Assembly (NCBI GenBank): GCA_000165345.1
Contig: CM000432.1
Coordinates: forward strand, 128,001 to 192,000
Length of the DNA stretch: 64,000 bases
Direction of reading: 5' to 3'
The first letter of the stretch is position 1; each line of letters starts with the position of its first letter. Positions 19,999-64,000 of the stretch are shown here, one piece after another. Position numbers and translations under genes: made by a program. The notes below the pieces were generated by a model. The model was not told where the DNA came from. It made no database searches and saw only the letters and a list, made by a program, of their open reading frames with translations.

Positions 19999-20916
19999 AT
20001 GAATACTCCAACTAAAAAGAATACTCAAGATAAGGTTAATGATGAATCTTTATTAGGTTCATACTACAGACTAAAGTCTTATAAAAAGCTCACAAGTAAT
20101 AAGAAGTCTACGATAAATGGAGAAGTTTCCAACCAAAATATAGATGAAAACGCAATTTATACAACTCCAATAAGAAGCTCTCGAAGAATAAGTTCACGCA
20201 AGAATTATGCAAAAGAAGAGCCTAATCTTTTGGATTATTCACCAGATTCCAAGAATGGGAAAATTTTAGTCACTCCGAATCCATATATCGGAGATGATAT
20301 TGTTGAGGAATTGCTAAATGATATGCTTTTGAAGTATAAAGACAAAATTCAAATAATCAATTTTAATAAACAACCTCAAATACTTGATGAGATCAATAAA
20401 GATGAAATTGAGGATTTATATACGAAGTTTGATTCAAAACTACAAATTAATGATTCTAATACAAGAACAATCCATTCTATTGAAAAAGAGACCTTTGAAA
20501 GCCAGGAAGAAATTAATTGTGAAGACAAAAATGAAGAAAAAAATCAAGAGATAGAAGATAAGAAACTTAAGCCTATCTTACCAAAACTAGCAGGAAAGAA
20601 AGAGTATTTTGTGTGCAGAAATAAACCAAGAAAATTCATTGGGGGTGGTACAGTAACTAACTCAATATTGGTAAATAATACATGCAAATACGAAATTATT
20701 GCAGAAAACGAATATTGGATGGTTGTTGAGTTCCCAAAGAACAGCAGTCTATATAGAAAACATAACTGTCCACGTGTACTCACTCAAAAGAGAATATTTG
20801 GGAGTCCAGTTAATTTCCCAGCAGTACAGTCTATTGACGAGTACAAAACCTTACATTCAGAACTGAAACAATTGCTAGAACTTAGTAATTACTGTTATTC
20901 CCCAGATTTGTTTTAG
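19999..20916 (+). CDS. Hypothetical protein, no family recognised
   Basis: The ORF track opens at a TTG at 19945; the first ATG (MNTPTKKN...) is 19999. The Lys/Asn/Glu-rich N-terminal half is followed by a more ordered C-terminal ~110 aa (YFVCRNKPRKFIGGGTVTNSILV...). Confidence 0.45.
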   Translation: MNTPTKKNTQDKVNDESLLGSYYRLKSYKKLTSNKKSTINGEVSNQNIDENAIYTTPIRSSRRISSRKNYAKEEPNLLDYSPDSKNGKILVTPNPYIGDDIVEELLNDMLLKYKDKIQIINFNKQPQILDEINKDEIEDLYTKFDSKLQINDSNTRTIHSIEKETFESQEEINCEDKNEEKNQEIEDKKLKPILPKLAGKKEYFVCRNKPRKFIGGGTVTNSILVNNTCKYEIIAENEYWMVVEFPKNSSLYRKHNCPRVLTQKRIFGSPVNFPAVQSIDEYKTLHSELKQLLELSNYCYSPDLF

Positions 20917-24211: not shown

Positions 24212-26452
24212 CTAGCACGTCATCTCAGCATCTAGATATGAAGCATTCCTTGGAATGGATCTGTTAGTTGGATTTTGGTTTCCAGTAGAAAATCCAGCTG
24301 CTGAATTGGTATTATTTACCCCAATGACAGGATTTATAGGCATACTAGCAGCTCCGAGGTTAGAATTAGGATTATTCATTGCGCCGGAAAGTCTAATAGT
24401 CGATTTAGGAAGATCATTCATTGAACTGTGATGGATACCAGTATTATTAGAGCTTGAGGAAATACTGACTGAGATTCCTTGTGTGTTGTTTCCATTGCTA
24501 CTATTACCAAAAGGATCAAAGTTACCTTCAGTGCAAAGCTCATCAATAAGATCGCACATGGAGGCGGTTTTCCTAAAATATGAACTTATAATAAATTGGT
24601 TACTCCCCCCACAGTTACTAGCGAGATCGAGTTTATCCGGATCAGTGAAATATGGTTCAAAATTGTCTTGAAATAGTAAATGGCGATCAAACCATATTCT
24701 TCCTCCTCTCCCTCGTCTACGAACAAGCCTATGAGGTCTGCATGGAGTTCTCAGACTTTGTAGAGGCTCCAATCTGGCAAGGTCAACCCCATTTTTATAT
24801 ATAGACTGAATATAATTCGGAATAGCAATCCTACAGAAAGCGGGTGAAGGCCCAGGTTGTGCTTGGTTTTCCTGGCTCTGTTGGCAATCTTCATTTAACT
24901 TTGCAGGCTCTATATTAGAATGGCCAGGGGTTTGAGGCATTATGACCTCTCCTTTATTGCCATCACTCATCACCGAAAAAGATTGATCCGTGTTTTCTCC
25001 ATTCTTAATGGCTTCTGTATGATCTTGTTTACCAGCATAAGTCCTAAAAACATTAAAAATAGAAGAGGTAAGTTGTAAAGAACCATAGTAATAGTAAGAA
25101 AGAAGTGACGTTTCATTTTCCCAAGAATACTTAAGAAGCATATCTAGGTTACCAATCTCTGAAGATAGCTTTTTAATGAACATACTCAGATCTCCAGGAT
25201 TAAAACTAGAAGAAAAATCTCCACCCTGGATAAATAACGGGGAGCCTGCCGTTAAGCCCATAACTCCACCGCCAGTAAAAAGCTGAGCAATAGAACCCCC
25301 TGCTCCTGTTCCAATAGAAAGCTGGGAAACTCCTCTCATTTCTTTCTTATGTTGTCTCTTCTGCTGCTTGTAGTTCTTTAGCCTATCCCAGATCGGGCAT
25401 CTATAGAACGGATCGGTGATCTCGTGCCGTCTCTGATCGAAAATGCAAGTGTCCAGCTCTGCCAGTAGAAGCTTCTTTTCATCCCTTTGTCTAAGCTTCC
25501 TAAAGCTTTTCTCAACTTTACGGAAGTCGTCCAAAAGCTTCTCCAACTTTTCCAAAGTCTCCTTGTTATTCCGCCTTGGCCGTCTCAAAGTCATTTTTTC
25601 TCTCACTCGAGGCCTAAAGCATGCATATGGAGATGAATCATGAGGTGAAGTAATTGGCCAAAAATGACGTAATAATGGCTTTCCTAACTTATGACGACGC
25701 ATCCTCCAATACTTATAAATTAACAAGGCCTGTTGATTTTTTATGGATGACAAGCCCCTCTCCCTGCATATTTGCAAAGCCTCATCGAAGCTTATCTCAC
25801 TTCCTCTACCAGTACTCTTCTCCATAAAATCGATCATCTTAATAAAATCTGACTCAGAAACTCCAACCTTCATGTGTTCAGACAAACTCTGTAAGAACTC
25901 CTCATCTACCTTGACCATATTATAATGCACCACAGTCCCATCCTCCAAGCGAATCCCAGAAACAAACTCTTTATGAACCGGAAATCTTATATAGTGTTCA
26001 GGCCTTTGAAATGCTATCAGCTTTGGAACATTAAGTGGGCAAATCTCTACTGGAGGAACCAAAATCGATGAAGCTGTAGCTCCCGATAAAGAACCTGACG
26101 ATCCTCCCAGCCCACCTGCACACGAGCTCCCGCCAGATGACGTGGCAGAACCTGCATGTGTGTTCGTATTAGAGTTATCTTTGTCCTTAGAAGTTGATGA
26201 AGATACCGAGGAATCATTTCCAGTAGACTGTCTCTGTGAAGATTTTTCTTTTTCCTCCGCTCTCATTTGATTGATCACCTCTTGGATCCTCTGCTTCTCT
26301 TCGTCGATTATGCTGCGAACTTCATCAGGCTCAAGTTTGTCATTGCTTTCTTCAAGAGCCTTTTCTAATTGGCTAATGGAAAAAACTACTTGGAGCTTTT
26401 TCTGTGGGTCCAGTGTCTTTGGCCTCGCATTACGTGTTGAAGTCTGCGACAT
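24212..26452 (-). CDS. Enhancer-of-polycomb-like (Epl1/EPC) protein with an EPcA domain, a NuA4 piccolo-module subunit, plus a long low-complexity C-terminus
   Basis: Residues ~130-330 (IAFQRPEHYIRFPVHKEF...HYNMVKVDEEFLQSL...LLIYKYWRMRRHKLGKPLLRHFWP...FRPRVREKMTLRRPRRNNKETLEKLEKL...) follow the EPcA pattern, including the FRPR-KM-RR-R-N basic box. The domain call is from memory of the family, not a search. Confidence 0.55.
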   Translation of the reverse strand: MSQTSTRNARPKTLDPQKKLQVVFSISQLEKALEESNDKLEPDEVRSIIDEEKQRIQEVINQMRAEEKEKSSQRQSTGNDSSVSSSTSKDKDNSNTNTHAGSATSSGGSSCAGGLGGSSGSLSGATASSILVPPVEICPLNVPKLIAFQRPEHYIRFPVHKEFVSGIRLEDGTVVHYNMVKVDEEFLQSLSEHMKVGVSESDFIKMIDFMEKSTGRGSEISFDEALQICRERGLSSIKNQQALLIYKYWRMRRHKLGKPLLRHFWPITSPHDSSPYACFRPRVREKMTLRRPRRNNKETLEKLEKLLDDFRKVEKSFRKLRQRDEKKLLLAELDTCIFDQRRHEITDPFYRCPIWDRLKNYKQQKRQHKKEMRGVSQLSIGTGAGGSIAQLFTGGGVMGLTAGSPLFIQGGDFSSSFNPGDLSMFIKKLSSEIGNLDMLLKYSWENETSLLSYYYYGSLQLTSSIFNVFRTYAGKQDHTEAIKNGENTDQSFSVMSDGNKGEVIMPQTPGHSNIEPAKLNEDCQQSQENQAQPGPSPAFCRIAIPNYIQSIYKNGVDLARLEPLQSLRTPCRPHRLVRRRGRGGRIWFDRHLLFQDNFEPYFTDPDKLDLASNCGGSNQFIISSYFRKTASMCDLIDELCTEGNFDPFGNSSNGNNTQGISVSISSSSNNTGIHHSSMNDLPKSTIRLSGAMNNPNSNLGAASMPINPVIGVNNTNSAAGFSTGNQNPTNRSIPRNASYLDAEMTC

Positions 26453-54781: not shown

Positions 54782-56824
54782 TTAAGTTACTTGTTTATTT
54801 TCCTGTTCTGAAGTACCTTGTAGTTGTAATTCCTTTTCTGCCCGAGTGTTCACCAGAGATTCATTGGAATTAACATGATTTACCTGCTTTTGCAATCTAA
54901 CATTTGTATTATTAATGCTGTTGGACTGCATTTGACCTGTATTAGTTGTAGTGGTAGACAGACTTATATTATTTTGAAATTGATTTCCCAATACATTAGG
55001 ATTCGGAATAATTGAAGGCATAATTGGGGTATACGAACCCATAAAAGGCATAGTGTATCCATAAGGTGAGTACCAACCTGAATAAGCAGCAGCCATGGCA
55101 GCCATATAGTCTGCATGGTAATTACTTGGGATATTTGTACCACAAATAGTAATGCTAGAAGAAGGCATTGCTTTAGTTTCTTGTCCTGGCATAATTGCAC
55201 CATATTGATCTAATGTAGATTCAGCAATATTCTTTACAGTGTTGGAAGGAACAGTTTGAACAGAACCTTTAAAACTTCCAACATTCAAAGCAGCACATTG
55301 CAATTTTTCAGCATCCGATTCTTCTGATTTATTTGACTCTAATCCAGTAAAAGGGGCTAATCCATATTGTGAAAACAAAAATGGGTTTGCACGGATTGCA
55401 GCATTAGCATAATTACCACCTGAATTTGACGATATTGCAAGATTGGCAGCAGTTGCATACGCAACCTGTTGTTGCAAATAGTAATTTGCCATTTGAGCAT
55501 GCTGTAAAGCAACCAGAGTATTATAATCCATACCAACAAAAGGATTTGTGGAGGCAGCAGAAGAGCTTTGATCCATAAAAGTCGAGCTAAGCTGACTTTG
55601 ATTTGTAGGAAAGAAACTCAAGTCAGAAGAATCAAGAGTTTCTGTCTTAGAGTTAGGTTTAAATCTTTTAGATGATACTGTGGTTGTGCTGGTTGATGGG
55701 TTCATATATGCTCCTGTAGTCTGTCTCTCTACAAGACGATCGGAATCAATTTGGTTTGCCATAAGTGCCAAAAATAAATCATCAGAAGAAACATTTTCTC
55801 CAATTGTAGAAGCTACGGGAATTGTGGCGGAAAATTTAGATTCATTTTGGTTTGCATTAGAGCTCTGCTTATGCTTGGCTGTCACATATTCTCTGGCAGA
55901 TGTGATAGGGCTAGTAATCCCAGCAGCATTCCCTTCACTGCTATCCATTTTCTTAATAATCTCGCCATATAATGTCGCAGGATTAATATTAGAAGTATTA
56001 TAATGAGACCAAACCTCATCATCACTTTCAGGAGCAGGAAAATGAAGCATAATTCCTTTAGTTCTTCTTGCTTCCTTGAGCGCTTGAGACCCAACATAAG
56101 GTTCCTCCCCCTCTTCATCACTCTCAGAAAATCTAAAATGTTTTAGATGGCTTCTTCTATGCAATGGACTGTTAATCAACAAAAATCGAATGGCAGCCTT
56201 TTCTGCATCCCTAACAGTGGCGTATGGCTTGTTCGGCCCTACATAAAAACTCTTGGAATACTTTCTGGTAGCCCATGTAAACCTAGCATAAACCCTGCTT
56301 TCTTTATCTTTCCAATATACTCCAATTTGATTATATTTTAGCTGTCTTGAACCAGCCTCGTGATTTGCTGCCGAACGACGACCTGATTTAGAAGTGCTTT
56401 GTGTTGAATGCACTAACTCTTCAGCTCCTGTATCAATACTAATAGGATGAATATCAAAAGCAGATTGCTCTTCTGGCTTTTCTTTAGAATCTTTATTTGG
56501 AAGAACATCCTCCGTTTTTGAATCTTCAGTTTGTATATCTTCTGAGTTATTTACCCCAGCAACAGAAAGAACACTATTTGAATCACAAAGTTCATTAGTA
56601 GTTATAGTAGTTGTCAGACATGAATCGTCATCTTCAACGTAAGAACCACTTTTGCTAATTGTAATTGGCTTTGTAATATTATACTCATATATACCTGCAT
56701 TTGTAGCATCAATTGGAATGGTATTACCTTCTTGCCCCAAGTCCAAAAATACCTTTTGATCACTAGAAAGTGGATTCACAGCCTTAATCATTTTTGAGAA
56801 GTTTTCTTCTGCTTCGTTTTCCAT
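54782..56824 (-). CDS. ApiAP2 transcription factor (single central AP2 domain), otherwise Ser/Thr/Asn-rich
   Basis: QIGVYWKDKESRVYARFTWATRKYSKSFYVGPNKPYATVRDAEKAAIRFL fits the ApiAP2 pattern (GV.W......W.A.......KSF.V...G...A...A..A...). The ORF track opens at a TTG at 56863; the first ATG is 56824. Confidence 0.6.
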   Translation of the reverse strand: MENEAEENFSKMIKAVNPLSSDQKVFLDLGQEGNTIPIDATNAGIYEYNITKPITISKSGSYVEDDDSCLTTTITTNELCDSNSVLSVAGVNNSEDIQTEDSKTEDVLPNKDSKEKPEEQSAFDIHPISIDTGAEELVHSTQSTSKSGRRSAANHEAGSRQLKYNQIGVYWKDKESRVYARFTWATRKYSKSFYVGPNKPYATVRDAEKAAIRFLLINSPLHRRSHLKHFRFSESDEEGEEPYVGSQALKEARRTKGIMLHFPAPESDDEVWSHYNTSNINPATLYGEIIKKMDSSEGNAAGITSPITSAREYVTAKHKQSSNANQNESKFSATIPVASTIGENVSSDDLFLALMANQIDSDRLVERQTTGAYMNPSTSTTTVSSKRFKPNSKTETLDSSDLSFFPTNQSQLSSTFMDQSSSAASTNPFVGMDYNTLVALQHAQMANYYLQQQVAYATAANLAISSNSGGNYANAAIRANPFLFSQYGLAPFTGLESNKSEESDAEKLQCAALNVGSFKGSVQTVPSNTVKNIAESTLDQYGAIMPGQETKAMPSSSITICGTNIPSNYHADYMAAMAAAYSGWYSPYGYTMPFMGSYTPIMPSIIPNPNVLGNQFQNNISLSTTTTNTGQMQSNSINNTNVRLQKQVNHVNSNESLVNTRAEKELQLQGTSEQENKQVT

Positions 56825-57355
56825 CTTTTCTTGACTTACTCCTATTTCTAGTTGCCTTTCCAATTCGCTGATAAAGTTACTAACTAGAATGGCTAGTAAT
56901 ACCTTCTTTTTATCAAATAAATTGACTCAGAAATTAATAAATATTACACAGATCTCTGTTTATGATGTTTTCCTTAGTTTAACCAACACATAAAGAAACA
57001 CACACATTCACACTCCTGTGGGGTAGAAAATCTGGTTTTTCTTCGTGATTGAGCCACTTTTACTCACTTGACTAATCTTCACAGAAAGAGTAATGAACAC
57101 AAGTGCTATTACTTGATTAATAAAGTAAAAAAGCCAATCTATTGAATATTTTCTTCTTTTTTATTTTCTTGAATCTCCAAAATCTATTTATGAATTCTCA
57201 GTTCTAACCTGCTTTTCCTGCGAAAAAATGCTTATCACCTTACTCTCACTTCAAATTCCGCTCCTCCTACCCTGGTATCTTCACCAATATCTTCCTTTCT
57301 TGATCTTTTGGTTCAGAACCTATGGATTTTTATGAAATGAATGGTACCGATACCA

Positions 57356-57410
57356 CACGTGAGCAGATTTAGCATGCTATTAATGTGGGCAACACGTGGA
57401 TAGGGCGGTA
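57356..57410. promoter_or_regulatory. Two CACGTG palindromes 37 bp apart plus GGGCGG, in the divergent ApiAP2 (54782..56824, -) / PNO promoter
   Basis: ccacacgtgagcagatttagcatgctattaatgtgggcaacacgtggatagggcgg. Confidence 0.4.
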
Positions 57411-57747
57411 AAAATTGAATCCAATAATTTTATTTTATCTAACGTATAGTAATCTTCTTACTAATTATAATAAATTATTAATTTCAAATATATATATTTA
57501 TAATATACTTTTTCACAGATTTCACTGGCCAGACTTTTATTTATTTTTTCCCCCCAAAAAATTATAATTGCATTTTTTGTTCCGATTTTTTTTTTTGAAA
57601 AAATATTTTAAAATTGAAAAAGTAATAAAAAAAAATTTCACACGTCATTCATTTCTGATTTATCCTAAAAAATATTTTCGTATCATTTTTGCTTATGTGT
57701 CGGTATATTTACCGGACTGTCCACATAACACATACGTGTTTTTTTCC

Positions 57748-57785
57748 CCATGCATACATGCATGCGAAACATTACATGCAATATA
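57748..57785. promoter_or_regulatory. TGCATGC/CATGCA cluster ~720 bp upstream of the PNO ATG
   Basis: ccatgcatacatgcatgcgaaacattacatgcaatat. Confidence 0.4.
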
Positions 57786-58504
57786 TTTGTTTAGAGTTTA
57801 GTATAAAGCACAATAATTTTTTTTAAAATATTCGCAAGTCCTACGTAATCTGTAAGTGAAACAAATTTCTTTTAGCTATTAAATTTAGAAGATATTTTAC
57901 TTATGTTTAGTACAAAATCTATTTTTATAGGATAATAAAAATAAATTCTTTACACTTGAATTTCTATAATTTTTTGTTTTAACTAATTTGATAGTTTATG
58001 AAAAAATGGTAGCTATTATATTTCCACCAAAATTTGAATTCAAATTTCAATTAGAAAAAAAAACTATTTACTTATCCAGATCTGTTCACAAGTATAACTT
58101 AAACCAAATAAAGGTATTTAGATGAGCTCTTTTCTACTGTTCTATTATATTTTAAAGAAAAACAAATAATTAGCTTAATCATTTTACTTCACAAATAATC
58201 TAATAATTTAATCGTAAAATTTAAAAAATAACTTTTAGCGGCAAAAATAGTCAAACATGTCGAGGGAGGGGACACATTGAGATTTTTGACTTCTCGTAAA
58301 AAAGTAAAGAATCGAGAATGAGGGAAAGGAATTAAATAAAAGAAAATCATTATTAAGAATTATTAAAACATTGAACAAAATTTGAGAAGTATCCCTATTT
58401 AAATAGAATAAAGACCGACACGTTTTATAATACTATGAATAAGGCCCGAAAGTAAGAAAAGAAAGAATTGTAAAGTATATTAGGATTGATAAATAACATT
58501 TACT

Positions 58505-61500
58505 ATGGGTGAAAAAGAAATAGTAGATGGGTGTGTAGCTGCTTGCCACATTGCATATGCTTGCTCTGAGGTGGCATTTACATATCCAATCACTCCCTCT
58601 AGTACAATTTCTGAGGTCGCAGACTCATGGATGTCTCGTGGACGACGAAATATTTTTGATCAAGTTGTATCAGTTGTTGAAATGCAGAGCGAAATGGGTT
58701 CTGCAGGCGCATTACATGGATCTTTGTCTGTTGGTTGCTCCACAACAACTTTTACTGCTTCACAAGGGTTATTGTTAATGATTCCAAATATGTACAAAAT
58801 TGCTGGTGAGCTTTGGCCATGCGTATTTCATGTTACAGCCAGAGCTATCGCTACATCTTCACTCTCTATTTTCGGAGACCACAATGATATTATGGCTGCC
58901 AGACAAACTGGCTGGGCTTTTTTGGGAGCTATGACAGTACAGGAAGTTATGGATTTGGCATTGGTCTCACATGTGAGTACATTTGAGTGTAGCGTTCCCT
59001 TTGTTAACTTCTTTGATGGATTCAGAACATCTCACGAATTACAGAAAATTGATATGATTAGTTATGAAACTATTAAGAAGATTTTTCCATATGAAAAACT
59101 TAAAGAGTTCAGAGAAAGAGCATTAAATCCAACACACCCAACTCTAAGAGGTACCGCTACAAGCTCGGATGTCTATTTTCAACTTGCTGAGGCAAGAAAT
59201 AAATATTACGAATCTACTCCAGATATTGTTCAGAGTGTTATGGACCGTTTGGCTAAATTGATTGGTAGAAGCTATCACCTTTTTGACTACTATGGCCACC
59301 CTGATGCTGAGTTTTTAATCGTTGTAATGGGTTCAGGCGGTCTCACAATTGAGGAGATGATTGATTATCTAATGGAGAAGAGTAATGAAAAGGTTGGCAT
59401 GATCAAGGTTAGGCTTTTTAGACCTTGGTCTATTGATGCTTTTGTTAAAAAGATTCCAAAGACTACGAAAAGAATTACTGTTTTGGAAAGGTGCAAAGAA
59501 AGTGGCTCTCTTGGTGAACCACTTTGTCTGGATGTATCTACCAGCATTATGAGATCCGAACTTTCTAGTAATAATATTTTGGTATTAGGTGGAAGATATG
59601 GTCTAGCAAGCAAAGAGTTTACTCCAGGAATGGCTTTAGCAGTCTGGGAAAACATGATAAGTGAAAAACCAATCAATAATTTCTCTGTTGGAATTGATGA
59701 CGATGTCACATTTAAATCTCTCTTTGTTAGGCAACCAAGGTTGGATTTACTTACTAGCGAAACTAAGCAATGCCTCTTTTGGGGTCTCGGCTCTGATGGT
59801 ACCGTTTCTGCTAATAAAAATGCTATCAAGATCATTGGAGAGTCTACAGATCTTCAGGTTCAGGGTTACTTTGCATATGATGCAAAGAAAGCTGGCGGAG
59901 CTACCATGAGCCATCTTAGGTTTGGCCCAAAACCCATTAAATCTGCCTATTTACTTCAAAGATGTGATTATGTTGCAGTACACCACCCATCATATGTTCA
60001 CAAGTTTGATGTATTAGAGAATATTAAGCAAGGTGGTTGCTTCGTACTTAATTGCCCTTGGAGTACATTGGAGGAGCTTAATCATGAGCTTCCTTCGAAG
60101 ATCAAACATCAAATTGCATCTAGAGATGTTAAATTCTACGTTATTGACGCTCAAAGGATTGCTCAGGAGTCTAATCTTGGAAGAAGAATTAATAATATAC
60201 TTATGGTTGTCTTTTTCAGTTTGACAAATATCATTCCCTTAGACCTCGCAATTAAGCTTGTAAAGGAAGCAATTAAAAAAACATACGGAAAAAAGGGAGA
60301 TGCTGTTGTTAATTCCAACTGGAAGGCTGTTGACCTTACCTTAGAGTCTTTGATTCAGATATCGTATGACAAGTCTCAGTGGATAAGCAAAGACAAATGC
60401 GGAGAAAAATCACTTCCAGCTACAGCTGTTGAAACGGGGAATAAAGACCAAGAAATAACTAAATCCACAGTTCTAAAGCAAAAACCGGAACATGACGTAA
60501 ATCAATTCGTAAAAGATATATTAGGACCAGTTAATGCCTTAAAAGGAGACGAACTTCCGGTTTCTATGTTTGATCCTACCGGCACTGTTCCTCTTGGTAC
60601 TACTGCATATGAAAAAAGAGGCATTGCCATGTCCATTCCTATTGTTGATATGAATAAATGCACTCAGTGCAATTATTGTTCAATAGTCTGTCCACATGCA
60701 GCCATTCGTCCATTCTTATTAGATGAGGCAGAATTTAAGAATGCACCCGAAACAATGCATATACCAAAAGCCAAGGGCGGTCAGGAATTCTCATCATATT
60801 ACTATCGAATTCAGGTAACTCCACTTGATTGTACTGGTTGTGAGTTATGCGTACATGCATGCCCGGATGATGCACTTCATATGGAAGGCCTGCAAAAGAT
60901 GGAAGCAGTGGAGAAAACTCACTGGGATTATTTAATTGGTCTTCCAAATAAGGCTGAAAAGTTTGATAGAACAACAGTAAAGGGTTCACAGTTCCAGCAA
61001 CCTCTTCTTGAGTTTTCTGCAGCATGCGAAGGATGCGGAGAAACACCTTATGTAAAGTTATTGACACAACTTTTTGGCGAAAGAATGGTTATAGCAAATG
61101 CAACAGGTTGCTCTTCAATTTGGGGAGCATCTTATCCTTCAGTACCATATACAAAGAACCAGAAAGGATATGGACCAGCTTGGGGTAATTCTCTTTTTGA
61201 AGATAATGCGGAATACGGATTAGGAATGGTTGTAGGATATAGACAAAGAAGGGATAGATTTAGAGAGTTAGTTTCCAATGAGATTTTGAAGGATATTACT
61301 GAAGAGGAAGAGTTTTTAAAAGATGACAACGCCTCAGTTCAAGGTAGGAACGAGATTATTACTAAATATGATCATTTGAAGGATTATTTAAGGTCTTGGC
61401 TTAAGAACATTAGGAATGGTGAAGCATGCCAGAGCTTATTTGAAGAAATATCAAAGTTGCTTGAGGATAATTTGATTAATAGTAATAATTTTGCTCAGGT

Positions 61501-64000
61501 ATTGAAAAAAGACCGAATTGAACTCTTAGAAAAGCTTTATGATTCTAGAGATTTGATACCAAAGATTAGCCATTGGATTGTTGGTGGAGATGGCTGGGCT
61601 TACGATATTGGATATGCCGGTCTTGACCATGTTTTATCATTTGGAGAGGATGTAAATATCATAATTTTGGATACTGAGGTATATTCTAATACAGGAGGTC
61701 AAGCTTCTAAGAGTACTCCTTTTGGTGCTATAGCAAAGTTTGCTCAGAGTGGTAATTTGAGACAAAAGAAGGATATCGGATCTATTGCAATGGAATATGG
61801 ATCAGTATATGTTGCATCCGTTGCTTTAGGAGCAAACTACTCACAAACTATCAAATCTTTGCTAGAGGCTGAGAAATACCCAGGAACATCTTTGATTGTA
61901 GCTTATTCAACTTGTATTGAACATGGTTACACTAAATATAATCTCCAACAAGAAAGTGTTAAGCTTGCAGTAGAAAGTGGATACTGGCCTTTGTATCGAT
62001 ATAATCCAGAGCTGGTACGAACCGAAGTTGTGGATAACCTAACAACAATAGTATCTTCTGGGTTTACCTTAGATTCCAAAAAAGTTAAGGTTGATATAGA
62101 GAACTTCCTAAAGAGGGAGAACCGTTTCTTGCAATTAATAAGGAGTAACCCAGAATTGGCTTCAATGGCAAAAGATAAGTTAAAGGCTCATTCAGACAAA
62201 AGGTTCCAGAAGATGAAGGACATGTCTGAGAATGTCACAGTAACAGCTTTGAAAGATCAAATAAAGAAACTTAAGGATCAATTGATTTCCATTCAAAATG
62301 CAAGCAAAACCGGCGAATTAGCTGCAAGTGGTTTAATTAATGCAGATTTATTCATTGAACAAGAAATGCATGTATTATACGGTACCGAAACAGGAAATTC
62401 AGAAGAGGTTGCACAGTATATACAGAGCCAGTTGGTATCAAGAGGATATTCATCCAGCTCATTGAATTTAGATGATTTGGATATTGATGAGTTTTTGAAT
62501 CCAGATAAGTTTTCTACAGTGATAATTGTTACAAGTACTTCAGGACAGGGAGAGTTTCCAGGATCATCAGGAATTTTATACGAGGCTTTGCTTAAGAAAC
62601 ACTTGGAGAATCAGGATGACAAGTTCTGTAGTTTTATGAGATTTGGAATATTTGGTTTAGGTGATTCCAACTACGTTTTCTTCAATGAAGCAGCAAAAAA
62701 ATGGGACAAACTTTTGTTAGATTGTGGAGCAGTTAGAATTGGAGCAGTGGGAATGGGAGATGATCAATCAGAAGAAAAATACGAAACTGAGCTAATTGAA
62801 TGGCTACCAGATTATTTACAATTGATTAATGCTCCAGAACCAAAGCATGATGAGAAGAGTGAGATTCCAAAAGCAACTACTTTTAAAGTGACAATACTGG
62901 ACTCTTGTAGAAATGATATATTAAATGAATCAACTGGTACTTTATGTGAGAAATTGGATGAAAATAATAATATTGGGAATTCACATTATAAGCCAATAAT
63001 TCCTCCAAATTCAGTTTTACTTCCCGTAATAGAAAATAAGAGAATAACAAATCAAGATTATGATAAGGATGTAAGACATATAGTATTTAAATTAATTGGT
63101 GATGGAGGTGATACTCCATCTCTTTCTTATTGTTTGGGAGATAGTTTAGCATTGTATGGTCAAAATCCAGTAAATGAAGCAATTAAAGCTATAGAAATGT
63201 TTGGTTATAATCCGTATAGTTTGCTTAGGTTGAGTATAAATGAAGAAAATGAGGCAAATAATACAAATAAAGTAAATCAGAGATACAGTTCATTATTTGG
63301 ATATGATATAACTGTGTTGCAATTATTTGTGGAATGCTTGGATCTTTGGGGAAAGCCTAATCGCAAGTTTTTCCAGGAATTTTATCGTTATTGTAGTAAC
63401 CCAGAAGAGAAGATTCAAGCAAAGAAGTGGGCACAGAATGAAGGGAAGAAACTAATTGAAGAGTTTTCATCAAAAACTGGGACATATTTGGATGTATTTA
63501 AAATGTTCGAATCAGCAAGACCAACTCTTGCTCAGCTTTTAGATATCGTACCTTTCATAAAGTCGAGATCATATTCAATAGCTTCTTGTAATAAATTTGT
63601 AAATGGAGAAAAAATTGAACTTTGTGTAGGAATAGTGGACTGGAAGCTTGAATCAGGTGAGATTAGGTATGGCCAATGCACAGGTTTCTTAAATAGATTA
63701 CCGATACTAGATTCAGAATCAAAAATAGACAGTATTCCTAGACTTCCTTCAAATATTAAAGCAAGCGCTTTCAACTTACCTTTTGATTATAGATCGCCGG
63801 TTATTATGGCTTGTATGGGCACTGGAATTGCACCTTTTAGAGCCTTTGTTCAGAATAAAAAGTACATTAGAGATGTATTAAAAGAAGAAATTGGACCAGT
63901 AATATTATATTTTGGTTGTAGATATTATGATAATGACTATTTATACCGTGAAGAGCTTGAGAATTATGTAAAGGAAGGGGTTATTACTTCTTTGAATATT
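58505..64000 (+). CDS. PNO: Pyruvate:NADP+ oxidoreductase (PNO): an N-terminal pyruvate:ferredoxin oxidoreductase fused to a C-terminal NADPH-cytochrome-P450-reductase-like module. 5' partial; 1832 codons to the window edge with no stop reached.
   Basis: PFOR hallmarks are present. The N-terminal domain I reads VDGCVAACHIAYACSEVAFTYPITPSS...QSEMGSAG. The 2x[4Fe-4S] ferredoxin domain CTQCNYCSIVCPHAAIRP...CTGCELCVHACP starts at ~60660. The TPP site is GDGWAYDIG...ILDTEVYSNTGGQ at ~61570-61700. From ~62367 a flavodoxin/FMN domain (HVLYGTETGNSEEVAQ...IFGLGDSNY) is followed by FAD (RSYSIAS) and NADPH (MACMGTGIAPFRAF) motifs of the CPR family. This fusion is established for Cryptosporidium and Euglena PNO. 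Confidence 0.9.
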   Translation, partial: MGEKEIVDGCVAACHIAYACSEVAFTYPITPSSTISEVADSWMSRGRRNIFDQVVSVVEMQSEMGSAGALHGSLSVGCSTTTFTASQGLLLMIPNMYKIAGELWPCVFHVTARAIATSSLSIFGDHNDIMAARQTGWAFLGAMTVQEVMDLALVSHVSTFECSVPFVNFFDGFRTSHELQKIDMISYETIKKIFPYEKLKEFRERALNPTHPTLRGTATSSDVYFQLAEARNKYYESTPDIVQSVMDRLAKLIGRSYHLFDYYGHPDAEFLIVVMGSGGLTIEEMIDYLMEKSNEKVGMIKVRLFRPWSIDAFVKKIPKTTKRITVLERCKESGSLGEPLCLDVSTSIMRSELSSNNILVLGGRYGLASKEFTPGMALAVWENMISEKPINNFSVGIDDDVTFKSLFVRQPRLDLLTSETKQCLFWGLGSDGTVSANKNAIKIIGESTDLQVQGYFAYDAKKAGGATMSHLRFGPKPIKSAYLLQRCDYVAVHHPSYVHKFDVLENIKQGGCFVLNCPWSTLEELNHELPSKIKHQIASRDVKFYVIDAQRIAQESNLGRRINNILMVVFFSLTNIIPLDLAIKLVKEAIKKTYGKKGDAVVNSNWKAVDLTLESLIQISYDKSQWISKDKCGEKSLPATAVETGNKDQEITKSTVLKQKPEHDVNQFVKDILGPVNALKGDELPVSMFDPTGTVPLGTTAYEKRGIAMSIPIVDMNKCTQCNYCSIVCPHAAIRPFLLDEAEFKNAPETMHIPKAKGGQEFSSYYYRIQVTPLDCTGCELCVHACPDDALHMEGLQKMEAVEKTHWDYLIGLPNKAEKFDRTTVKGSQFQQPLLEFSAACEGCGETPYVKLLTQLFGERMVIANATGCSSIWGASYPSVPYTKNQKGYGPAWGNSLFEDNAEYGLGMVVGYRQRRDRFRELVSNEILKDITEEEEFLKDDNASVQGRNEIITKYDHLKDYLRSWLKNIRNGEACQSLFEEISKLLEDNLINSNNFAQVLKKDRIELLEKLYDSRDLIPKISHWIVGGDGWAYDIGYAGLDHVLSFGEDVNIIILDTEVYSNTGGQASKSTPFGAIAKFAQSGNLRQKKDIGSIAMEYGSVYVASVALGANYSQTIKSLLEAEKYPGTSLIVAYSTCIEHGYTKYNLQQESVKLAVESGYWPLYRYNPELVRTEVVDNLTTIVSSGFTLDSKKVKVDIENFLKRENRFLQLIRSNPELASMAKDKLKAHSDKRFQKMKDMSENVTVTALKDQIKKLKDQLISIQNASKTGELAASGLINADLFIEQEMHVLYGTETGNSEEVAQYIQSQLVSRGYSSSSLNLDDLDIDEFLNPDKFSTVIIVTSTSGQGEFPGSSGILYEALLKKHLENQDDKFCSFMRFGIFGLGDSNYVFFNEAAKKWDKLLLDCGAVRIGAVGMGDDQSEEKYETELIEWLPDYLQLINAPEPKHDEKSEIPKATTFKVTILDSCRNDILNESTGTLCEKLDENNNIGNSHYKPIIPPNSVLLPVIENKRITNQDYDKDVRHIVFKLIGDGGDTPSLSYCLGDSLALYGQNPVNEAIKAIEMFGYNPYSLLRLSINEENEANNTNKVNQRYSSLFGYDITVLQLFVECLDLWGKPNRKFFQEFYRYCSNPEEKIQAKKWAQNEGKKLIEEFSSKTGTYLDVFKMFESARPTLAQLLDIVPFIKSRSYSIASCNKFVNGEKIELCVGIVDWKLESGEIRYGQCTGFLNRLPILDSESKIDSIPRLPSNIKASAFNLPFDYRSPVIMACMGTGIAPFRAFVQNKKYIRDVLKEEIGPVILYFGCRYYDNDYLYREELENYVKEGVITSLNI

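Follow-up and report, generated by a model that had tools for sequence, protein, structure and literature searches.

A CACGTG pair in the spacer between the Cryptosporidium parvum PNO gene and its divergent neighbour marks a genus-wide conserved non-coding element

Transcriptional control in Cryptosporidium is poorly understood, and the regulatory motifs known for the genus are short and statistically defined. Here we describe a non-coding element surrounding two CACGTG hexamers in a stretch of 64,000 nucleotides (nt) of the Cryptosporidium parvum genome (GenBank assembly GCA_000165345.1, contig CM000432.1, positions 128,001 to 192,000 of the forward strand), referred to below as the window. 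The element, termed block A, lies in the spacer between the gene for pyruvate:NADP+ oxidoreductase (PNO) and a divergently oriented gene for a protein of 680 amino acids (aa), and two further conserved blocks, B and C, lie between it and PNO. The core of block A is a single-copy sequence of about 75 nt that is more conserved throughout the genus than the surrounding coding DNA and is thereby a concrete and small experimental target. Taken together with the adjacent invariant and putatively DNA-binding protein, it could lead to a new pair of factor and site in Cryptosporidium.

The closest described systems are the motif families of C. parvum, namely E2F, AP2_1, G-box and CAAT-box-like (Oberstaller 2013/2014, Mullapudi 2007). 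Families of the GCATGC, CCAAT, G-box-like and E2F-like types have been described for C. parvum promoters (PMC3734150, PMC4117751). Among them TGCAT/GCATGC is a described binding motif of ApiAP2 factors (PMC4117751, PMC3734150) and the G-box a motif family described in C. parvum (PMC3734150). In published ATAC-seq data, more than half of the C. parvum regulatory peaks were bidirectional promoters, in which E2F motifs dominate. The spacer resembles these families in that block A contains GCATGC, CCAAT and near matches to the G-box-like and E2F-like motifs, with an exact E2F motif in C. muris, while a TGCAT cluster makes up block B and block C carries a G-box. It differs from them in that the CACGTG and GGTACC of block A are not among the described families. 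The families are moreover short, degenerate and defined by over-representation, whereas the core of block A is a near-invariant sequence of about 75 nt that occurs once.

The hexamer CACGTG is otherwise known from plants, fungi and animals as the G-box or E-box, to which dimers of bZIP or bHLH proteins bind. Block A has the same palindromic hexamer in two copies, in a setting that looks promoter-like. Unlike in those systems, no cognate factor is known in Cryptosporidium, for which a published census of transcription factors lists bZIP proteins (three CCAAT-binding and one other) and no bHLH protein. In addition, C. xiaoi and C. ryanae can do without one of the two CACGTG copies. The string ACGTG was found nowhere in the text of the C. 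parvum motif papers PMC3734150 and PMC4117751, and no link between CACGTG and Cryptosporidium regulation was found in the searchable literature.

A third comparison can be made with the conserved non-coding elements that lie beside transcription-factor genes in animals and plants. Similar to these, the core of block A is more conserved than nearby coding sequence and adjoins a gene whose product has a putative DNA-binding domain that is invariant. It differs in being one short element in the very compact genome of a protist, and its distance of a few hundred base pairs (bp) from the gene makes a promoter likelier than a distant enhancer. No conserved non-coding element in Cryptosporidium was found in the searchable literature.

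The CACGTG pair and the conserved blocks of the spacer

An earlier note on the window had described the region upstream of PNO as an unusual promoter with two CACGTG palindromes 37 bp apart, a GGGCGG, a TGCATGC cluster and a divergent spacer at 56825-58504. These features were all recovered: CACGTG is found at 57356 and 57393, GGGCGG at 57403 and the cluster (ATGCATACATGCATGC / TACATGCAA) at 57750-57781, and the start codon of the neighbour at 56824 closes the spacer. The statement that no CACGTG pair was seen elsewhere in the window also held, as the sole further copy in the window is found at 20771 within an open reading frame (ORF) and no second pair exists in the 64 kb.

The number of CACGTG sites in the window showed no enrichment (3 observed vs 1.9 expected). 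For three randomly placed sites the probability of a pair at most 45 bp apart was ~0.004, and such a close pair was seen for 3 of 219 similarly rare hexamers in the window. Within the window alone the pair is a mild outlier, and a functionless chance co-occurrence would agree both with the lack of enrichment and with the roughly one close pair that is expected by chance among rare hexamers. Comparison between species leaves hardly any room for that explanation. PNO loci orthologous to that of C. parvum were fetched from ten other Cryptosporidium species, giving 11 species in total, and their spacers were aligned with MAFFT and a conservation profile computed. The pair was found in 9 of the 11 species at a spacing of 36-37 bp (36 bp in C. 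muris), the second CACGTG was invariant in all 11, and this at a divergence at which synonymous sites are near saturation. The pair is thus non-random because it is conserved across species with its spacing.

Gene order was the same in all 11 species, with a gene for a protein of ~680 aa divergent to PNO and a spacer of 1.0-2.4 kb. No other divergent ORF pair in the window is separated by as much as the 1.68 kb of the C. parvum spacer. Three peaks of conservation were observed in the aligned spacers, corresponding to blocks A, B and C. The features of the spacer are as follows.

57165-57465, strand unassigned: block A, conserved non-coding (MAFFT profile, 11 species)
57336-57410, strand unassigned: ultraconserved core of block A, ~75 nt, 88.9% identical between C. 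parvum and C. muris
57343 GGTACC, 57356 CACGTG, 57372 GCATGC, 57384 TGTGGGC, 57393 CACGTG, 57403 GGGCGG: sites within the core
57421-57449: CCAAT (57421-57425) and CTAACGTATAG (57439-57449), adjoining the core and kept in 10 of 11 species, not in C. muris
57698-57790: block B, TGCAT cluster with CGGTATATTTACCGGACTGTCCACAT, ATACGTGT, ATGCATACATGCATGC and TACATGCAA, of the AP2_1/TGCAT motif type
58259-58335, plus strand: block C, G-box GTCGAGGGAGGGGAC followed by a conserved purine-rich leader, ~170-245 bp 5' of the PNO start codon

Block A was the sole intergenic match when the 15.8-kb syntenic loci of C. tyzzeri and C. muris were compared with BLASTN (238 nt, E=2e-28). The nucleotide identity of its core between C. 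parvum and C. muris exceeds that of the PNO coding sequence (68.8%) and even that of the codons for the neighbour's invariant protein domain (81.8%), while third codon positions are 40-46% identical between these two species (46% in PNO). Among six divergent species, conservation reached 0.83-0.99 at 57325-57404 compared to 0.2-0.5 across most of the spacer, and it was moderate (0.65-0.8) over another ~170 nt that adjoin the core towards the neighbour. The core consensus is nearly invariant and reads AATGGTACCGATACCACA-CGTG...GCATGC..TTAATGTGGGCAACACGTGGATAGGGCG. The core is single-copy, as no other copy with up to 3 mismatches was found in the window, and none was found in metagenome contigs.

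The first CACGTG reads CAGGTA in both C. xiaoi and C. ryanae, which keep the rest of the core and the second CACGTG. Because these two species lost the first hexamer yet retained the remaining core, selection acts on the 75-nt core as a block rather than on the hexamer pair. Judged from these alignments, the CACGTG pair is best described as the mark of a previously undescribed, genus-wide ultraconserved non-coding element.

The other two blocks are conserved to a different extent. Block B is kept in species as distant as C. xiaoi and C. ryanae; in C. muris it is mostly missing. The G-box GTCGAGGGAGGGGAC of block C stands ~235 bp before the PNO start codon and was found in every species, though partial in C. 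muris; block C is probably the proximal promoter of PNO or the start of its 5' untranslated region. The spacers of C. xiaoi (L009, 2693-5000) and C. ryanae (L010, 2624-5000) have grown to 2.3-2.4 kb, and the extra length is entirely on the PNO side of block A. Sites containing TACCG recur at 57701-57726 in block B and 57343-57351 in block A (GTACCGATA, an inverted repeat CGGTA-N4-TACCG and, on the minus strand, ATACCGACA) and are partly conserved between species. These sites may resemble plant AP2/ERF sites of the DRE/GCC type.

Nature of block A and the gene that it may serve

Block A was evaluated as an RNA, as a protein-coding sequence and as a DNA element. A search of Rfam 15 with positions 56700-58600 returned zero matches at E<=1, and no tRNA was found by ARAGORN. 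RNAalifold was run on both strands of block A and gave ~-19 kcal/mol over ~310 columns, with a covariation term of ~0 and with 0 and 3 compensatory pairs on the two strands. Minimum free energy (MFE) z-scores ranged from -0.57 to +0.12 for both strands in C. parvum and C. muris. A structured RNA gene was rejected on these four negative results. Insertions and deletions in block A are mostly of 1-2 nt and not multiples of three, and its substitutions are spread over the three phases as 109/101/85 (p=0.22), that is with no 3-nt periodicity. ORFs in the spacer do not exceed 77 aa and no small ORF is conserved. A hidden coding exon or small ORF was accordingly rejected as well.

The composition of the core instead speaks for an element of duplex DNA. 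Four GC-rich palindromic hexamers (GGTACC, CACGTG, GCATGC and CACGTG) are found in its 75 nt where 0.13 are expected, a density that is the maximum of the window and is reached by just one other site, in coding DNA. The core region has exact matches to CCAAT and to GCATGC, the core of AP2_1, and TGTGGGC fits 7 of the 8 positions of the G-box-like DTGTGGGG. In C. parvum the sequence GGGCGGTAAAA has no exact match to the E2F-type consensus (TGGCGCCA / DTTGSCGCCH / TTTGGCGGGAA), from which it departs by a single mismatch, and at the same position C. muris has the exact E2F motif ATTGGCGCCC (DTTGSCGCCH). On account of the palindrome density and the described promoter motif families, block A is read here as a putative element of duplex DNA, and its conservation shows it to be under strong selection. 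The coding site that ties with the core lies at 25586-25684, where CTCGAG, AGGCCT, GCATGC and TGGCCA are found within 75 nt, inside the ORF 24212-26452 on the minus strand.

The position of block A relative to the two genes was then compared between species. From the invariant CACGTG to the start codon of the neighbour the distance was 561-599 bp in ten species and 416 bp in C. muris, compared to 1069-1779 bp in ten species and 627 bp in C. muris to the start codon of PNO. In C. parvum the pair is ~530-570 bp from the neighbour's start codon. Strand composition was also utilized, as the coding strands at this locus are purine-rich. Directly beside the core, towards the neighbour, the purine fraction of the plus strand falls to its minimum of 0.39-0.40, and rightward of the core it stays below 0.5 for ~700 bp. 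The skew flips at ~58100-58200, ~700-800 bp right of the core, and peaks at 0.63-0.66 over block C. Eight of the 11 species show this pattern clearly; C. xiaoi and C. ryanae show it less strongly, and C. muris lacks it. Transcript-like contigs with the neighbour gene, which were sought for start sites, were not found; the contigs recovered were chromosome-scale assemblies only.

From these results, transcription of PNO would start close to block C, with block A being part of the leftward transcription unit or common to both. It is assigned to the neighbour or to both genes because of its spacing, the strand skew and the presence of a separate proximal block at PNO. The view of the CACGTG pair as an unusual PNO promoter was therefore not upheld: the distance to the neighbour is stable and that to PNO variable, the skew switches between block A and PNO, and PNO has a G-box block of its own. 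The pair is probably not a PNO-specific promoter feature. What remains of that view is that motifs upstream of PNO exist and are shown by phylogenetic footprinting to be under selection; they do not form one PNO promoter, as the spacer holds three separate footprints.

On balance the evidence tips towards block A being a conserved cis-regulatory module that works at the level of DNA, probably the promoter of the neighbour or one that is shared. It would then be a tight cluster of candidate sites for dimeric transcription factors, made up of GGTACC, CACGTG, GCATGC, the G-box-like TGTGGG, CACGTG, the E2F-like GGGCGG and CCAAT. Most likely it would serve as promoter or upstream control region of the divergent and weakly AP2-like 680-aa gene, and it may act bidirectionally and be shared with PNO; blocks B (TGCAT cluster) and C (G-box) would more plausibly be dedicated to PNO. 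Protein binding, the controlled gene and the identity of a CACGTG-binding factor are all things that we infer. A number of observations weigh against such a module. Near-invariance over 75 nt exceeds that of typical binding-site clusters and also fits a sequence-specific, unstructured RNA in a long 5' leader. Exact matches to described motifs in C. parvum are limited to GCATGC and CCAAT, the E2F and G-box matches being one mismatch off, and CACGTG is not among the motifs described for Cryptosporidium, for which a bHLH factor is not listed. Furthermore, strand skew is an indirect sign of transcription that 8 of the 11 species show clearly and C. muris lacks, and a long-range effect of block A on PNO is also possible.

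Location within a long 5' leader of the neighbour's mRNA, where block A would act at the RNA level as a platform for RNA-binding proteins or in translational control with upstream ATGs, is conceivable although rather unlikely. The ~170 nt of moderate conservation on the neighbour's side are purine-rich on the neighbour's coding strand, like its coding sequence, the distance to its start codon is conserved and the purine bias of the minus strand extends to ~58100, which leaves room for transcription to start rightward of the core. Yet no stable or covarying structure is seen in block A, the small ORF that starts at the ATG of GCATGC shifts frame between species through 1-nt insertions and deletions, and palindromic hexamers together with CCAAT and E2F-like sites are features of duplex DNA recognition. 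We similarly doubt that the block with the CACGTG pair acts on PNO as a distal upstream element of the enhancer type or as an alternative promoter, through which PNO expression would be tied to a CACGTG-binding factor. It does lie in a shared spacer that is the widest between divergent ORFs in the window, PNO is the rightward neighbour in every species that has the block, and GCATGC and GGCG-core motifs have been reported upstream of C. parvum glycolysis genes. PNO is however outside the glycolysis gene set that was analysed, its start codon is 627-1779 bp away compared to a stable distance to the neighbour, a separate conserved proximal block is found at PNO and the skew switches ~700-800 bp to the right of block A.

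An unannotated gene for a non-coding RNA (ncRNA) appears very improbable, be it snoRNA- or snRNA-like, RNase MRP, telomerase RNA or a spliced-leader RNA with an 18-nt invariant exon that runs to the GT of the first CACGTG. Conservation above that of coding DNA and the form of a discrete, single-copy unit of 230-300 nt would suit such a gene, and RNase MRP and telomerase RNA are missing from the published Rfam ncRNA list of C. parvum (benchmark set). Moreover, the sequence CAG|GTAAGT, which looks exactly like a splice donor, stands in place of the first CACGTG after the invariant AATGGTACCGATACCACA in C. xiaoi and C. ryanae. This is countered by the empty Rfam search at E<=1, the lack of covariation and the MFE z-scores near zero. 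A spliced-leader RNA is disfavoured in particular, since a published search with SLIDR/SLOPPR and small-RNA-seq gave no spliced leader in C. parvum and C. muris, with GTGCGC, has a weak context for a donor-like GT. A telomerase template was discarded as the spacer has zero 7-mers of the telomere repeat (CCTAAA)n. For the minus strand of C. xiaoi a U1-like reading (ACTTACCTG) was rejected by eye, C. parvum and C. muris differing from it at three positions.

The preferred reading of block A as a DNA module can be extended, to a claim that we regard as a long shot. In that case block A would be a master control element of the whole genus and would be recognised by a factor new to Apicomplexa, either the adjacent AP2-like protein or an undescribed CACGTG-binding dimer. 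With the former it would form an autoregulatory loop, in which a protein and the element of its own promoter would both be frozen across the genus. Block A could in addition couple the AP2-like regulator to the expression of PNO, which is central to pyruvate oxidation in the parasite.

The divergent neighbour gene

The gene to the left of the spacer codes for a protein with the following features.

54782-56824, minus strand: divergent neighbour gene, 680 aa, from translation; a Cryptosporidium-restricted family
55925-56347, minus strand: near-invariant core of the protein, aa 160-300, ~140 aa, C. parvum to C. muris
56177-56326, minus strand: weakly AP2-like segment, aa 167-216 (AP2 PF00847)

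Residues 161-200 of this protein are 100% identical across the genus, compared to ~56% identity outside the core. The whole protein had no match in Pfam at E<=10. When the domain was isolated, its best Pfam match was AP2 PF00847 (12.4 bits, E=0.21, profile positions 4-47 of 54), which does not reach the curated threshold of 33.3 bits. No match was found in the PDB using phmmer, solved AP2 domains included. An AlphaFold2 model of the domain was of low confidence (pLDDT 45) and had the element order strand-strand-strand-helix, which is compatible with AP2; Foldseek with this model was uninformative (best E=0.12). The C. canis ortholog is named 'AP2/ERF domain-containing' in UniRef. Its likeness to ApiAP2 factors consists of the best Pfam match and, in the low-confidence model, a compatible order of elements, and it differs from them in an extra invariant extension of ~85 aa (aa 217-300) that has no known domain. 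That the neighbour is an ApiAP2 protein is plausible from these matches; the label as such, which had been given to it in the earlier note, is not established by a score of 12.4 vs 33.3 bits, a lack of PDB matches and a low-confidence model.

An exhaustive HMMER search of 1.84 billion representatives returned only the neighbour's own family and one protein of 282 aa (P0146). The latter is 65% identical to the neighbour core and comes from the Logan contigs ERR15302239 (L012, 31-879) and ERR11260129 (L013, 39-887). These are ~1.3 kb long with ~30 nt upstream, too short to show the upstream context. The protein would be the most distant known member of the orphan family.

In C. meleagridis the gene model (L005, 1-3342) has the neighbour fused to the next gene upstream, giving 1722 aa with NIP7/UPF0113 domains. 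The C. felis ortholog (P0142) is named 'UPF0113 family protein', apparently propagated from the C. meleagridis fusion. Both the fused model and the C. felis name look like annotation artefacts.

The PNO gene and a further GCATGC pair

PNO is a textbook enzyme of Cryptosporidium and a recognised drug-target candidate. From what is established for pyruvate:ferredoxin oxidoreductase (PFOR) and diflavin reductases, its PFOR half would decarboxylate pyruvate in a reaction dependent on thiamine pyrophosphate (TPP) to give acetyl-CoA. Electrons would pass from the [4Fe-4S] clusters to the fused FMN, then to FAD and on to NADP+. The gene was mapped in the window as follows, and nothing new is added here to what is known of the gene itself.

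58505-64000, plus strand: PNO coding sequence, codons 1-1832 of 1934; the window ends within the NADPH-binding domain
58505-62233, plus strand: PFOR module, aa 1-1243 (collinear BLASTP alignment with residues 3-1171 of the full-length Moorella PFOR, 52% identity)
60659-60694 and 60830-60865, plus strand: [4Fe-4S] Cys boxes CxxCxxCxxxCP, aa 719-730 and aa 776-787
61586-61612, plus strand: TPP motif GDGWAYDIG, aa 1028-1036
62234-62362, plus strand: inter-module linker, ~43 aa, from the end of PFOR homology at aa 1243 to the start of Flavodoxin_1 at aa 1290
62372-64000, plus strand: diflavin reductase module, with Flavodoxin_1 at 62372-62803, FAD_binding_1 at 63008-63688 and NAD_binding_1 from 63806 to the window end

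Translation of 58505-64000 on the plus strand gave 1832 codons in frame with zero stops, and ~102 C-terminal codons lie beyond the end of the window. The claim of an uninterrupted ORF, with no stop between the PFOR and cytochrome P450 reductase (CPR) halves, was thereby confirmed as far as position 64000. Pfam domains were found in the order POR_N, PFOR_II, POR, EKR, two Fer4, TPP_enzyme_C, Flavodoxin_1, FAD_binding_1 and NAD_binding_1, the last being partial as it is interrupted by the window end. In the PDB, the protein matched the PFOR structures 6cin/1b0p (E=0), and its residues 1288-1832 matched the cytochrome P450 reductases 3fjo/1amo (E ~1e-50). All domains of a homodimer-type PFOR are present along with two ferredoxin-type Cys boxes and the TPP motif, and FMN, FAD and NADPH domains of the CPR type share the reading frame of the PFOR part.

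The translated ORF, for which the earlier note had proposed a BLASTP check, was identical to the C. parvum PNO EAK87662.1/QOY41958.1 at 1832 of 1832 residues. Together with the domain order and the PDB matches, this 100% identity bears out the reading of the ORF as a PFOR-CPR fusion. Compared to UniProt Q968X7 (Pyruvate dehydrogenase [NADP+], CpPNO) 1830 of 1832 residues were identical, and differences were observed at 12-13 positions to C. hominis and 19 to C. tyzzeri. By its translation the ORF is the already-known PNO gene of C. parvum, which also identifies the window as DNA of this species, and we infer pyruvate- and CoA-dependent NADP+ reduction from the identity to Q968X7. CpPNO and the PNO of Euglena gracilis likewise consist of PFOR domains I-VI, a linker and FMN, FAD and NADPH domains in one polypeptide; between CpPNO and the gene in the window there is no difference, the latter being the same gene minus the last ~102 codons.

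Two statements on the fusion required correction. The linker had been described as K/E-rich and ~60 aa long; it is ~43 aa long, the higher estimate having arisen because the last PFOR helix was counted in, and its K+E fraction is 0.16 vs 0.14 for the whole PNO protein. The fusion had also been called a signature of Cryptosporidium shared with Euglena. It is indeed present, but its range is wider than these two since full-length PFOR-reductase fusions at 41-48% identity were also found in gregarines (Blabericola, Gregarina) and Chromera velia, as well as in several eukaryotic metagenome and Logan contigs. On the basis of these homologues the fusion appears to be broadly spread among alveolates and other protists.

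Elsewhere in the window, two GCATGC palindromes of the AP2_1 type were observed at 1354 and 1373, 19 bp apart and with ACCGGT nearby, in the intergenic gap 847-2213. These may represent another promoter cluster of the ApiAP2 type.

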